Positions 29,160 through 63,779 of a stretch of 64,000 nt of DNA are shown piece after piece (position 1 is the first letter of the stretch; the number at the start of each line of letters is the position of its first letter). The notes below the pieces were generated by a model. That model made no database searches. It was not told the origin of the DNA and saw only the letters and a list, made by a program, of their open reading frames with translations. The position numbers and the translations under genes are program-made. Where the stretch lies: contig NC_073404.1 in NCBI RefSeq assembly GCF_028641065.1, positions 5,084,001-5,148,000 on the forward strand. The letters are read 5' to 3'. The stretch comes from Leucoraja erinacea. Taxonomy: Eukaryota.

Positions 29160-30080
29160 CGGCAGAGAGTTCCACAGATTCACAACTCTCTGGGTGAAAA
29201 GGGTTTCCTTATCTCAGTCCTAAATGGCCTACCCCTTAATCTTAAACCGTGACCCTTGGTTCTGGACTCCCCCAACATTGGGAATTTTTTCCTGCATCTA
29301 GCCTGTCCAATTCTTTAAGAATTGTATATGTTTCTATAAGATGCCCTCTCATCCTAAATTCCAGTGAATACAAGCCAGTCGACCCATTCTGAAATGGTTA
29401 AATGCTTTTAAATATATAAAAGATACATGGTGGAATACTTGACTAGGTTGTAGCATGTATTCCAAGAGAGAGAGAGACAAGCCCAGGCTTGTCTCAGGTG
29501 GTGTATATTGAGACAATGACCTATGCCTTTGAAATGTCTTGTCCTGGAAGTACCTCTTTGCTCCCAAACAGAAATCCTTTTGCAATCAAGGCCAACATGC
29601 CATTAGCTTTCTTCACTGCCTGCTGTACCTGCATGCTTATTTTCAGTGTTTAAGAAGGAACTGCAGATGCTGGAGAATCGAAGGTACACAAAAGCTGGAG
29701 AAACTCAGCGGGTGCAGCAGCATCTATGGAGCGAAGGAAGGGTCTGAAGAAGGGTTTCGGCCCAAAACGTTGCCTATTTCCTTCGCTCCATAGATGCTGC
29801 TGCACCCGCTGAGTTTCTCCAGCTTTTTTGTGTACCTGCTTATTTTCAGTGACTGATGTACAAGCACACCCAGATCTTGTTGCACCTCCCTTTTTCCTAA
29901 TCTGACACCATTCAGATAATAGCCTGCCTTCCTGTTCTTGCCACCAGAGTGGGTAAACTCACATTTATCCACATTATACTGCATCTACCATGTATATGCA
30001 TCTGCCCACTCACCCAACCTATCCAAGTCACCCTGCAGCCTCATAGCACCCTCTTTGCAGCTTACACCGCCACCCACAAA
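29160..30080 (-). mobile_element. CR1 ORF2 fragments
   Basis: Translates as RLQGDLDRLGEWAD.WQMQYNVDKCE...DLGVLVHQSLK. Confidence 0.85.
29649..29836. mobile_element. Penelope-derived foldback insertion with 15-bp TSD
   Basis: The TSD tgcttattttcagtg lies at 29634-29648 and 29837-29851. Inverted arms of ~55 bp surround CTGAAGAagggtttcggccc(a)aaac. Confidence 0.88.
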
Positions 30081-30360: not shown

Positions 30361-30490
30361 TTTAAGAAGGAACTGCAGATGCTGGAAAATCAAAGGTAGA
30401 CAAAATTGCTGGAGAAACTCAGTGGGTGCAGCAGCATCTATGGAGCGAAGCAAATAGGCAACGTTTCGGGCCAAAAACCCTTCTTCAGAC
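30361..30490 (-). mobile_element. Penelope-derived hammerhead-bearing fragment
   Basis: tttaagaaggaactgcagatgctgg...gtttcgggccaaaaacccttcttcag, flanked by duplicated accttgtgttt. Confidence 0.8.
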
Positions 30491-30936
30491 CTTGTGTTTT
30501 GGCAGGTACTATATTGTGCAAGATGTGAGTGCTGAACTTTAGCCAAACAAATCATCCACAAAGGAACACATGCTCTCAAATTTCCTAGCCACTTTTATTC
30601 ATCCAGAAAATGTAAGCATTGTAAAGATGAGCATTGGAGCTCTGCAGCCAATGTGGTGAAGAAATGCTCTGTCCTGCTTGGGTAGCACTCTAAGGCTATG
30701 GTTGCCTCCCTGTAGATAGATTGTCATCCTGTTAGATTAAATTAATGTACGAAAATAGCTGAGTGTTGAGCCTTGACCCACAAACCCTCAAGATGAATAC
30801 TGCTCCACTATCTCCAACCTGATATTCCATTATACAAATCATTTTGATAGCATAGGAACAGGTCCTTCAGCCCATGATGTCTATGCCGACCATGTCAAAT
30901 TAAACTGCTCCCAGCGGCGAGCACGGTATCCACATA

Positions 30937-39092: not shown

Positions 39093-40136
39093 TATTCATA
39101 AAATTTGCAAAATATAGTATTTATTACTGAATTGTTGCCACATTTGTTTGCACAACATACACCTTATTAGCATGACTCCATTTTTCCTATATATGTATGC
39201 AATGTGGGAGGGCTTTAAATCAGTGAGCTATCCCCAAGCAACCTTTGCATTGGTTGCACCAATCTTCAGTGTGCCCATCACTGTCATTTTGGATTCAAGA
39301 AACGGCCAGTGGTCCTAAATGGCTCCTAATAATGGAAGACCAACACATTTCAGACAGGCCAAAGGTCATTGCTAGTAATCTTCCAGCAGTAGACATCTTT
39401 GGGAACATCCTGCATGGCATGGAGAACTATGTTGCGCAGATTTCTACAAGGACATCAATAGACACCGTGGCATTTCTTTCTAAATCTCATTGGCAAATGC
39501 ACACGTGTAAATAAAATGGAATGTAGTCCCACCACCACCACCCCACTCCCCAAAGCCATCTCAGGGGGGCACTCTGTGTTGCCTCTGTGTTGAAGGAATC
39601 TGACAAAGACAGTACTTTGCACAGTAGGTCTTGGTGCTTCCAAAGTGAAGCTGAAGTGGCAGTAGCCAAGTCTTAGGGAAGTCATGGACCACAGCAACAA
39701 GATTCAAAAGGCTGTAAATTCAAAGGAAAGATTGCATGGACTCAGTCTCAATTCCACCAATTGCAGATTAAGGAATTATAAAATTAAGGACAGATGATTA
39801 AATGCTAAGGCTGATGAACAATTTCCTCTAATGAAGTCTACATCATGCCACAACCTTAATTTAAAAAATAGTCCATGTAGGAGCCAAGTTAACAAACACT
39901 TGCACTCAAAATGTGGATGAATAACTTCTTGAAGATCCCATTATAAAATCAATTCATCAGTACAGATATAGATATTAATAACTGGATTAAATCTGAATAC
40001 ATTTCTGATAGTTACTTTATAAAAGGTTGCATATGACTGGGAATACAATCATTTAATCCGATCAAGGAAAGTAATTTAGGCCAAGCATTAGATGATGATA
40101 CAATGACTAGTTTCTACAGATTATATACTGCATTGG

Positions 40137-40366
40137 AGACACAAAATGCTGGAGTAACTCAGTGGGACAGGCAGCATCTCTGGAGAGAAGGAATAGGTGA
40201 CGTTTCGGGTCGAGACCCTTCTTCAGACATGGACTTCGCTGAAGAAGGGTCTCCACCCGAAACGTCACCCATTCCTCTCCAGAGATGCTGCCTGTCCCGC
40301 TGAGTTATTCCAGAATTTTGTGTCTATCTTCGATTTAAACCAACATCTGCAGTTCCTTCCTGCACA
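40137..40366. mobile_element. Penelope-derived foldback with two inverted hammerhead cores
   Basis: Inverted arms of ~90 bp, with cores at 40196-40228 (-) and 40239-40269 (+). The imperfect TSD is ttatatactgcatt/ttatagattgcatt. Confidence 0.85.
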
Positions 40367-41749: not shown

Positions 41750-42647
41750 CCAAGAAGACCAAGGAACTCATTGTAGACTTCAGGAAGTCCAGAGGCGGCA
41801 CGCACACCCCCATCCACATTAACGGGACGAAGGTGGAACGTGTTTCTAGCTTCAGGTTCCTGGGAGTCAACATCTCCGATGACCTCTCTTGGACCCACAA
41901 TACCTCAACTCTGATCAAGAAGGCTCACCAGCGACTCTTCTTCCTGAGGAGACTGAAGAAGGTCCATCTGTCTCCTCAGATCCTGGTGAACTTCTACCGC
42001 TACACCATCGAGAGCATCCTTACCAACTGCATCACAGTATGGTATGGCAACTGCTCTGTCTCTGACCGGAAGGCATTGCAGAGGGAGGTGAAAATTGCCC
42101 AAACGCATCACTGGTTCCTCGCTCCCCTCCATTGAGTCTGTCCAAAGCAAGCGCTGTCTGCGGAGGGCGCTCAGCATCGCCAAGGACTGCTCTCACCCCA
42201 ACCATGGACTGTTTAACCTCCTACCATCCGGGAGGCGCTACAGGTCTCTCCGTTGCCAAACCAGCAGGTCGAGGAACAGCTTCTTCCCGGCGGCTGTCAC
42301 TCTACTCAACAACGTACCTCGNNNNNNNNNNNNNNNNNNNNNNNNNNNNNNNNNNNNNNNNNNNNNNNNNNNNNNNNNNNNNNNNNNNNNNNNNNNNNNN
42401 NNNNNNNNNNNNNNNNNNNNNNNNNNNNNNNNNNNNNNNNNNNNNNNNNNNNNNNNNNNNNNNNNNNNNNNNNNNNNNNNNNNNNNNNNNNNNNNNNNNN
42501 NNNNNNNNNNNNNNNNNNNNNNNNNNNNNNNNNNNNNNNNNNNNNTCAAATCATTTGCTATGTCGCTCTTCCAGGGAGATGCTAAATGCATTTCGTTGTC
42601 TCTGTACTGTACACCGACAATGACAAATAAAATTGAATCTGAATCAA
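41750..42647 (+). mobile_element. Rex1/Babar LINE 3' portion spanning the assembly gap
   Basis: Translates as KTKELIVDFRK...SFRFLGVNISDDLSW...ESILTNCITVWYGNC, with the tail aaataaaattgaatctgaatc. Confidence 0.9.
42322..42545. other. Assembly gap (224 N)
   Basis: Run of n. Confidence 1.
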
Positions 42648-44314: not shown

Positions 44315-47300
44315 GGTGCAGGAGTAGGCCTTTCGACCGTTCGAGCCAGCACCACCTTCCAATATGATCATGACTGATCATCCAAAATCAGTACCCTGTT
44401 CCTGCATTCGCTCCATATCCCTTGATTCTGTTTGCCACAAGAGTTATATCCAACTCTCTCTTGAATACATCCAGTGAATTGACCTCCACTGCCTTCTGTG
44501 GCAGAATTCCACAGATTCACAACTCTCCGGGTGAAAAAGTTTCCTAATTTCAGTTCTAAATGGCCTACCCCTTATTCTTAAACCGTGACCCTTGGTTCTG
44601 GACTCACCCAACGTCAGGAATTTTTTTCCTGAATCTAGCCTTTCCAATCCATTAAGAATTTTATACATTTCTATAAGATCCTCTCTCATCCTTCTAAATT
44701 CCGGTGAATATAAGTCCAGTCAATCCATTCTTTCATTGTATGTCAGTCCATCCATCCCAGGAATTAACCTGGTGAACCTACGCTGCGCTCCCTCAATAGC
44801 AAGAATGTTCTGCCTCAAATTAGGAAACCAAATCTGCACACAATATTCCAGATGCGGTGTCACCAGGGCCCTGTACAATTGCAATAGGACCTCCTTGCTC
44901 CTACACTTAAATCCTCTCGCTATGAAGGCCAACATGTCATTTGCTTTCTTCTGCTTTACCTGCATGCACACTTTCAGTGACTGATGTACAAGGACACAAA
45001 GCAGGGTGGCAGTGTGAACTGTGAGGAGGATACAGGGTGACTTGGACAGGTTGGGTGACTGGGCAGATTAAGTTTAATGTGGATAAATGTGAGGTTATCC
45101 ACTTTGGTGGCAAGAACAGGAAGGCAGATTATTATTTAAATTGAGTCAAGTTAGGAAACGGGGAAGTACAACAGGTTCTGGGGGGTCCTTGTTCATCAGT
45201 CAATGAAAGTAAGCAGGTTACACAGAAAAGCTGGAGAAACTCAGCGGGTGCAGCAGCATCTATGGAGCGAAGGAAATAGGCAACGTTTCGGGCCAAAACC
45301 CTTCTTCAGACACCCGCTGAGTTTCTCCAGCTTTTCTGTGTAACCTTCGATTCTCCAGCATCTGCAGTTCCCTCTTAAACAATGAAAGTAAGCATGCAGG
45401 TACAGCAGGCAGTGAAGAAAGCGAATGGCATGATGGCCTTCATAACAAGAGTAGGAGCAAAGACGACCTTCTGCAGTTGTACAGGGCCCTAGTGAGACCA
45501 CACCTGGTGTATTGTGTGCAGTTTTGGTCTCCAAATTTGAGGAAGGACATTCTTGCTATTGAGGGAGTGAAGCGTGGGTTCACAAGGTTAATTCCCGGAA
45601 TGGCCAGACTGTCATATGTTGAAAGAATGGTGCGACTGGGCATGTATACACTGGAATTTTGACGGATGAGAGGGGATCTTATTGAAAAATATGATTATTA
45701 AGGGATTGGACATGCTGGAGGCAGGAAACAGGGTCCCGATGTTGGGGAGTCCAGGGGCCACAGTTTAAGAATAAGGGGTAGCCCATTTATAACAGAGATG
45801 AGGAAAAAAGTTTTCACCCATAGAGTTGTGAATCTGTGAAATTCTCTGCCTCAAAAGGCAGCGGAGGCCATTTCTCTGGATGTTTTCCAGAGGCATAGAT
45901 AGAGCTCTTAAAAACAGCAGTCAAGGGATATAGGGAGAAGGCAGGAAAGGAGTACTGATTGTGGATGATCAGCAATGGCCTAATGGCCTATTCCTGCACC
46001 TATTGTCTATTGACACTCATGTTTTGTTGCACTTCCCCTTTTCCTAATCTGGCACCATTCAGATAACAATCTGCTTTCCTGTTCTTGCCATCAAAGTGGA
46101 TAACCTCACATTTATCCACATATACTGCATCTGCCATGCATCCGCCCATTCACCCAACCTATCCAAGTCGCCCTGTCACCCAGCTTTGTGTCATCCGCAA
46201 ACTTGGAGATGTTACATTTAATCCCTTCATCTAATTCGTTTATATATTATATTTATATAATATATATATTGCGGCACCCCACTAGTCACTGCCTGCCATT
46301 CTCTATAGAGCCCGTTAATTCCGACTCTTTGCTTCCTGTCTGCCAACCAGTTCTCAATCAATGTCAACACCCTAATCCCAATACCATGTGCTCTAATTTT
46401 GCACATTTATGTCTTGTGCGGGACCTTGTCAAAGGCTTTTTGAAAGTCCAGATACATCACTGGCTCTCCCTATGGTGACTTGTTACATCCTCAAAACATT
46501 CCAGATTAGACAGGCATGATTTTCTGCTTCATAAATCCATGCTAACTTTGACCGATCCCGGTCACTGCTTTTCCAAATGTGCTGCTATAACATTTTTAAT
46601 AATCGACTCAAGCATCTTTTCCACTGTCGATGTCAGGCTAACTGATCATTCCCTGTTTTCTCTCTCCATCCTTTCTAGAAAAAGCAGAGTTAGATTAGCA
46701 ATCCTCTGATCACCTATGAAAATGATCACCTATGCATCCACGATTTCTTGGGCAACCACTTTGTGTTCTCTGGGATGCAGACCATCAGGTGCTGGGGATT
46801 TATCTGCCTTCAGTCCCAATAGTTTACCTAACACCATTTTGTGACTAATGTGGAAGTCCTTCAGTTCATCCCTCACGCTCGATCCATTGTCCCCCTCGTC
46901 TTTCTGGGAGATTGTTTGTGTCTTCCTTAGTGAAGACAGAACCAAAGTACTTGTTTAACTGGTCTGCCATTTCCTTGTTTCTCATTATAAATTCACCTGT
47001 TGCTGACTGTAAGGGACCTACATTTGTCTTCACTAATCTATTCCTCTTCACATATCTACAGAAGCTTTTAGTCATTTTTTATATTCCCGCAAGCTTTCTT
47101 TCATGCTCTATTTTCCCCCTCTTAATTAACCCCTTTGCCCTCCTGTCGAATTCTAAATTTCTCCCAATCCCGGTCTGCCGCTTCAGCTGGCTAATTTATA
47201 TGCCTCTTCCTTGGATTTAACTATCCCTAATTTCCCTCGTTAGACACGGTTGAGCCGCCTTCCTATTTTTATTTTTAATGCCAGACATATGAACAATTGT

Positions 47301-48609: not shown

Positions 48610-49487
48610 ATGAGGAGGATGCTAGGAGACTGCAAGGTGACTTGGATAGGCTGGGTGAGTGGGCAAATGTTTGGCAGATGCAGTATAATGTGGATAAATG
48701 TGAGGTTATCCATTTTGGTGGCAAAAACGGGAAAGCAGACTATTATCTAAATGGTGGCCGATTGGGAAAGGGGGAGATGCAGCGAGACCTGGGTGTCATG
48801 GTACACCAGTCATTGAAGGTAGGCATGCAGGTGCAGCAGGCAGTAAAGAAAGCGAATGGTATGTTAGCTTTCATTGCAAAAGGATTTGAGTATAGGAGCA
48901 GGGAGGTTCTACTGCAGTTGTACAGGGTCTTGGTGAGACCACATTTGGAGTATTGCGTACAGTTTTGGTCTCCAAATCTGAGGAAGGACATTATTGCCAT
49001 AGAGGGAGTGCAGAGAAGGTTCACCAGACTGATTCCTGGGATGTCAGGACTGTCTTATGAAGACTGGATAGACTTGGTTTATACCTCTAGAATTTAGGAG
49101 ATTGAGAGGGGATCTTATAGAAACTTATAAAATTCTTAAGGGGTTGGACAGGCTAGATGCAGGAAGATTGTTCCCGATGTTAGGGAAGTCCAGGACAAGG
49201 GGTCACAGCTTAAGGATAAGGGGGAAATCCTTTAAAACCTAGATGAGAAGAACTTTTTTCACACAGAAAGTGGTGAATCTCTGGAACTCTCTGCCGCAGA
49301 GGGTAGTTGAGGCCACAGTTCATTGGCTATATTTAAGAGGGAGTTAGATGTGGCCCTTGTGGCTAAGGGGATCAGAGGGTATGGAGAGAAGGCAGGTACG
49401 GGATCCTGAGTTGGATGATCAGCCATGACCATTTGAATAGGCTCGAAGGGCCGAATGGCCTAATCTGCACCTAATTTCTATGTTCTA
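48610..49487 (+). mobile_element. CR1 3' portion, relatively young
   Basis: ORF 48570-49097 reads RRLQGDLDRLGEWANVWQMQYNVDKCEV...LYRVLVRPHLEYCVQFWSP. Confidence 0.92.
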
Positions 49488-63480: not shown

Positions 63481-63779
63481 AAGGATTAGAGAAAGCTAAA
63501 ATAGACACAAAAGCTCAGTAACACAGCAGGTTAGACAGCATGTCTTAAGAAAAGGAATAGGTGATGTTTTTGGTTGAGACCCTTCTGAAGAACCCTCCAG
63601 AGATGCTGTCTGACCCGCTGAGTTACTCCAGATTTTTGTGTCTATCTTTGATGTAAACCAGCATCTGCAGTTCCTTCCTACACATTAGGGAATGTTAATT
63701 CCAGTTGAATCTCCCTCTGGATGAAATGCTTGGAATGCAACCTTGTCATAACCAACACTATATTGGGCAAATAGTAGAA

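Follow-up and report, generated by a model that had tools for sequence, protein, structure and literature searches.

Two insertions of a Penelope element occupy the identical nucleotide of two different CR1 copies within one window, the 64,000-nt stretch of Leucoraja erinacea DNA analyzed here. The question is whether they arose separately at a preferred site or descend from one event. A preliminary description had read them as separate events rather than one co-mobilized chimera, and as the work of a sequence-targeted Penelope that parasitizes CR1. Searching the flanks of both inserts for direct repeats of at least 10 nt, we found only 15-mers, one perfect pair per locus. At locus 1, the repeat search places the minus-strand target-site duplication at 29634..29648 (copy past the element 3' end) and 29837..29851 (copy ahead of the inverted arm), and between them lies a 188-nt minus-strand Penelope fold-back (29649..29836; repeat search and insert comparison). 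Its tail-less inverted arm was placed by BLAST at 29742..29836, where element sense is the plus strand, and the tail of ~34 nt (29649..29682, minus strand), read from the sequence and defined as in excerpts of PMC3846280, is on the direct arm only; over the 59 nt compared, the arms are identical apart from a 2-nt gap. The insert splits a minus-strand CR1-type LINE fragment of the CACTG subfamily (29577..30042, BLAST). At locus 2, the plus-strand duplication lies at 45201..45215 (ahead of the inverted arm) and 45380..45394 (past the 3' end; both by repeat search) and the plus-strand fold-back of 164 nt at 45216..45379 (repeat search and insert comparison), with the inverted arm at 45216-45311 and the direct arm plus tail running to 45379. 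Its host is a plus-strand CR1-type fragment of the CAATG subfamily (45020..45700, provisional outer ends).

Much of what had been described in the window was reproduced. The two inserts occupy one and the same nucleotide of CR1, and a perfect 15-nt duplication flanks each of them; the duplications have the sequences first given for them, and each agrees with its host but not with the duplication at the other locus; and the inserts share their orientation relative to the host, differ in inversion point and carry end variants mirrored in both arms. The homologous site is empty in two other CR1 copies, at 44965..44979 (minus strand) and, as an AAGG variant, at 48811..48825 (plus strand), both with the motif variants attributed to them. 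The window hosts are 87% identical (208/239) and represent different CR1 variants, and the inserts are different subtypes. Under uniform spread, only ~0.25 windows of 64 kb with two filled sites would be expected genome-wide, and the pair is either a lucky draw or a sign of local clustering. More fold-backs, of the same and an older related family, lie outside CR1 sites at 30361-30491, 40135-40365 and 63489-63683, and a run of 224 N (42322-42545) is distant from both loci.

In translation, the insertion site reads ..MKVSMQVQQAVKK and lies ~70 aa downstream of the FADD motif of the host reverse transcriptase (RT). The host LINE ORF carries a confirmed RT (Pfam RVT_1, E 1.9e-19, scored on an empty relative); by its motifs, it is probably of the CR1 clade. 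The inserts themselves, judged by sequence, are a Penelope element, putatively of Neptune type and from an abundant family. Its protein features were read from L061, a rearranged 3,574-nt copy at the same CR1 cut elsewhere in the genome. This copy (L061:3899-7472) is a fold-back whose 1,006-nt arms share 99.4% identity; it also has a second inversion within, which contains RT pieces. One RT piece of 234 aa has YIDD and matches Pfam RVT_1 under the curated cut-off (E 0.0086), and L061:6293-7225 matches Pfam GIY-YIG, also under the cut-off (E 0.0021). The predicted nuclease has the CCHH arrangement, in which a pair of cysteines lies between LIY and YIG and is followed further on by two histidines, and the upstream linker CNRKRCNTC fits CX2-5CxxC. 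In excerpts of PMC8557442, this linker together with CCHH characterizes both Neptune and Nematis, so the linker is not exclusive. The element resembles the Neptune-type EN+ Penelope-like elements of that text in its RT with C-terminal GIY-YIG, CCHH, linker and tandem or inverted ends; it differs in that the Neptune elements described there have a microsatellite bias and duplications of variable length, whereas the present family has a sharp duplication length of 15 nt and a nucleotide-exact site in non-repetitive sequence.

Each insert consists of an inverted and a direct arm, with the final ~34 bases on the direct arm only. Fold-backs make up 45 of 58 sense inserts, and their tail of ~34 nt matches inverted or tandem pLTRs with 30-40 nt tails. 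The inverted pLTRs of Arkhipova et al. 2013 (PMC3846280, in excerpts) are alike in the inverted 5' arm, the 30-40 nt one-arm tail, the short duplication and the landing in other retroelements, but unlike the present hot spot they are single cases with 8-10 bp duplications, and the excerpts describe no recurrent site. One locus (L245, G000:C1:48174359-48174516) carries the 33-nt tail four times head to tail, as though priming had restarted repeatedly. By eye, six unbiased insertions (L053, L137, L140, L152, L230 and L234) sit within the ends of related Penelope copies.

The inserts had also been called hammerhead-bearing. A candidate minimal hammerhead motif is present, though in the inverted arms only and with no Rfam match: at locus 1 (29742..29771, plus strand) core G12 is replaced by A at 29764 and the motif is predicted to be inactive, and at locus 2 (45282..45311, minus strand) a putative motif keeps its core letters intact. 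An Rfam scan of the inserts called no hammerhead and gave only hairpin look-alikes below threshold, and folding the motif as a single strand gave no advantage over shuffled sequences. The motif fits the core features of the minimal metazoan PLE hammerheads of Cervera and De la Pena (2014; PMC4209133, in part), namely an extra nucleotide between 9 and 10.1, a G10.1-C11.1 pair, palindromic 15.2-16.2 and a short helix I. It differs from those hammerheads in that both window motifs are on the antisense arm only and one is without G12.

Across the genome (2.19 Gb), we counted 42,318 exact element ends (25,335 by a longer pattern) and, with a 23-nt pattern, 32,983 empty CR1 sites; a strict junction pattern gave 33 matches genome-wide. 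Two junction scans that allowed a free gap of 0-30 nt (31 positions), with on-site matches counted by hand, put 81 of 85 sense junctions and 56 of 62 on the one CR1 position, while backwards control patterns gave 0 matches. This is an enrichment of ~385-fold over the ~0.21 junctions expected per position, with a denominator estimated from the first 100 of the 32,983 empty-site matches, and the 4 off-site junctions over the other 30 positions are at the level expected by chance. Hence, the positional enrichment along CR1 that the preliminary description had made its test is present, and the CR1 position is a true, nucleotide-precise insertion hot spot. Insertions at the cut total ~140 (~100 of the CA-N-TGAAA type, 13 of the CT type and 26-28 antisense); they account for ~0.3% of element ends and fill ~0.4% of such CR1 sites. 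The hot spot is visible because ~33,000 CR1 copies offer the site. The short motif CA-N-TGAAA was rejected as the sole signal, with 48 of the first 100 of 195 junctions off the CR1 site, an off-site share that, by rough estimate, is about that of a common 5-mer.

The junctions record how the target is opened. Among the 72 sense loci examined, which are the fetched subset of all existing ones, 58 have a flanking repeat of at least 9 nt, and the duplication is exactly 15 nt in 44 of the 58. Antisense insertions use the same two boundaries (26 of 31 clearly, 2 ambiguously and 3 off site; ~85-fold), and 18 of the 30 fetched have repeats of at least 9 nt, including 8 perfect 15-nt and 5 14-nt duplications. 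The relative orientation shared by the two window inserts is thus not general. One pair of cuts used both ways indicates a nuclease step and not RNA homing. In unbiased loci, the mode of the duplications is also 15 nt (24 of the 62 retained repeats of 14-19 nt) by a shifting-register search; an exact search for CA-starting duplications found few, because CA is often element-derived. The proposed microhomology between the leading CA and the end of the element is supported by the register shift and by the antisense and unbiased junctions.

Where copying begins follows the first bases of the target. CT-starting hosts join after TTAAACA (12 instances, with a perfect 15-mer in 8 of 12 fetched), CA-starting hosts mostly after TTAAA, and for 14 of the 26 antisense junctions the end point coincides with TG in the native continuation. 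Four loci (L075, L218, L292 and L297) keep native sequence past the tail, which fixes the RNA continuation for the microhomology test. The excess of 3'-junction microhomology is directly visible: unbiased junctions overlap by at least 3 nt in 17 of 42 cases versus ~3 expected, a count inflated by A/C-rich flanks. Pairing of primer and RNA helps yet is not required, since six of 26 antisense junctions are without it. Hairpins or palindromes around the nicks and pairing of tail with flank, looked for by eye, were dropped, being not preserved across host variants.

Outside the CR1 site, we used 172 non-redundant unbiased flanks taken from the first-listed element ends on contig C1. One of the 172 is at the site, and CR1 overall is not enriched among them, with 9/172 flanks in a 1.2-kb CR1 segment versus 12/187 and 25/419 in background tiles. 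For the young subfamily, 0 of the first 100 copies are at the CR1 site and 4 of the first 100 are at one position of a SINE-like repeat. A scan of this repeat, of which there are at least 51,266 copies, gave 278 junctions, of which, in the first 100, ~90 are no more than a few bases from a single site, for an enrichment of up to ~500-fold at a site picked after being seen; duplications there are 13-16 nt in 19 of 30 loci. In loci L299-L328 (e.g. G000:C1:721445), the SINE-site duplication ends in six bases common to the start of the inverted arm.

A proposed contrast between filled-type and empty-type CR1 motifs does not hold, in that 5,647 empty copies have the filled-type motif and two filled loci, L175 and L182, have the supposedly empty-type AAGG motif. 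This variant is under-filled (2/56 filled versus 34/100 empties), and AAGG hosts form the youngest clade (end branches mostly <0.02); age and sequence effects are inseparable for it because the under-filled variant is also the youngest.

The target motif derived from 60 unbiased sites is a real signal (EM score 253 versus 90-128 in controls); it is a weak one with rough symmetry, C/A-rich ahead of the duplication, A/T in the middle and T/G-rich behind it. As an additive motif, it ranks the SINE-like site in the top 1%, while the CR1 site in its true frame reaches only the 59th-95th percentile (~0-2 bits versus ~8 needed). Additive, symmetric and orientation-latent motifs were all tried, and none ranked the CR1 site high. 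A GCAT half-site at the nick, picked after seeing the site, occurs in 6 of 120 versus 1.5 expected (P 0.004). The shortfall means that the nuclease preference is inferred and not yet accounted for at the CR1 site; either the sample is too small, or specificity is non-additive, or chromatin or a host factor contributes.

Four other explanations compete with independent insertion guided by a nuclease. The filled sites might stem from one or a few ancestral insertions spread via CR1 retrotransposition, gene conversion or segmental duplication, and some duplicates do exist: five near-identical filled CR1 sites in G000:C8:423244-507567, a local duplication cluster whose target variant is 2 nt longer, and one pair on C28. 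We built a host tree from 99 flanks (58 filled and 41 empty), after discarding 19 of 118 for shortness or rearrangement, locus 1 among them. Filled and empty labels are slightly more clustered in it than in shuffles (9/500), a pattern that such spread would favor and that is partly due to the sample holding no empty CT-type host. Yet the single filled clade that would have marked a shared origin was not found: each side of a 100/100 split holds filled hosts mixed among empty ones, and the label switches 26 times over the tree, no fewer than 5 of these switches being forced by well-supported branches. The 58 inserts have 47 different lengths, each main host variant carries at least three insert subtypes, and element arms differ by 3% on average, yet many hosts have end branches of 0.04-0.09; in the window itself, the divergence of the hosts and the different insert subtypes tell the same way. 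Hence, host tree, insert lengths and subtypes rule out clonal spread as the main cause, leaving it scarcely any probability, and agree with the separate events of the preliminary description; the two window inserts are independent insertions. Alternatively, transcription of a source copy at the CR1 site could continue into the flank and yield read-through RNA that pairs with empty CR1 copies; such RNA homing would produce a self-reinforcing hot spot unpredictable by motif. The antisense insertions at the same cut, which would need a second source, largely rule it out. In addition, both repeat copies agree with the variant of the host they lie in, the register in CT hosts is that of the element's native continuation and not of CR1 read-through, and duplications exceed 15 nt in just 2 of 58. 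We therefore regard RNA homing as very improbable.

The several-hundred-fold excess at one CR1 nucleotide, together with a general target motif that does not predict the site, is what would be expected of the CR1 parasite proposed at the outset, an element evolved to recognize this CR1 sequence as its niche. However, only ~140 of 42,318 ends are there, unbiased flanks show CR1 at background level, and a hot spot of equal strength exists in the SINE-like repeat, which largely refute that reading and make it highly unlikely. Most copies do not share one target, as they do in elements of the R2 or PLE-X type, and the cut is used in both orientations, whereas a single orientation is a trait of the target-specific R2 retroelements. 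What the element does have is a fixed position within its target. Hence, the CR1 site is one of several preferred sites and not a niche, with >99% of copies elsewhere. In excerpts, PLE-X (28S rDNA of spike mosses; PMC8557442) and Chlamys/Naiad (microsatellites; PMC9977147) also recur at a defined multicopy position, but they are true target specialists, unlike the present element. Finally, the placement of a nucleosome, the shape of the DNA or a host factor on this part of CR1 may expose the cut site. The failure of the additive motif at the CR1 site speaks for this, as does the tolerance of changes at four duplication positions; boundaries that are nucleotide-exact in both orientations, in hosts ~1% to 9% diverged, are hardly the work of chromatin alone. 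We consider this unlikely, though less so than the other three.

The reading we prefer, with a probability of about two in three, is that of independent insertions at a CR1 hot spot set by the endonuclease's preferred 15-nt staggered double nick. The element endonuclease would make this nick at the CR1 site; both nicked ends would then prime on a single element RNA, with starts at the end of the tail and ~34 nt inside; dual priming on one RNA would yield the fold-back; and pairing of 1-6 nt between primer and RNA would set the start of copying. Anolis Poseidon in vitro (Frangieh et al. 2024, PMC11167929, in excerpts) is alike in that both strands are cut and extended, a dimer is predicted and two internal start sites bracket the tail. 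It differs in its AT-rich (ATT) preference and homology-free initiation, in contrast to the excess microhomology and fixed 15-nt stagger here. Tentatively, and with less confidence than in the preferred reading as a whole, the Neptune nuclease may act as a dimer with non-additive recognition of an extended site, cutting the strands 15 nt apart before copying, with the CR1 position as a high-affinity substrate. If so, the tens of thousands of CR1 and SINE variants would be a natural mutagenesis library for a Penelope nuclease, and would yield a cleavage code and a priming rule, the first for any Penelope element that carries an endonuclease.

Target choice and cutting by Penelope-like elements are poorly known. 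Published accounts, in the excerpts considered, speak of moderate or microsatellite preferences with variable duplications (PMC8557442) and of homology-free initiation (PMC11167929); the phrase 'moderate target preferences' for the Drosophila enzyme is cited in PMC8557442 (Craig et al. 2021). Among the papers listed in literature searches, none concerned a Penelope hot spot in CR1 or a 15-nt consensus target. The CR1 position is an insertion hot spot for an element of known kind; no new parasite-of-parasite system is shown. The value of the finding lies in a recorded mechanism and ready substrates: the natural copies preserve a fixed 15-nt stagger, two orientations per cut and a start register that follows the first bases of the target, and the CR1 and SINE-like sites are two defined substrates for a direct assay. 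They also advise caution: when paralogous repeats share a Penelope insertion at one position, this is no evidence of common descent. Three of the 172 unbiased insertions (L249, L269 and L274) lie within 6 nt of one another in the same CR1 ORF, 322-327 nt downstream of the site; this is probably a further hot region and may surpass the one examined here in strength.
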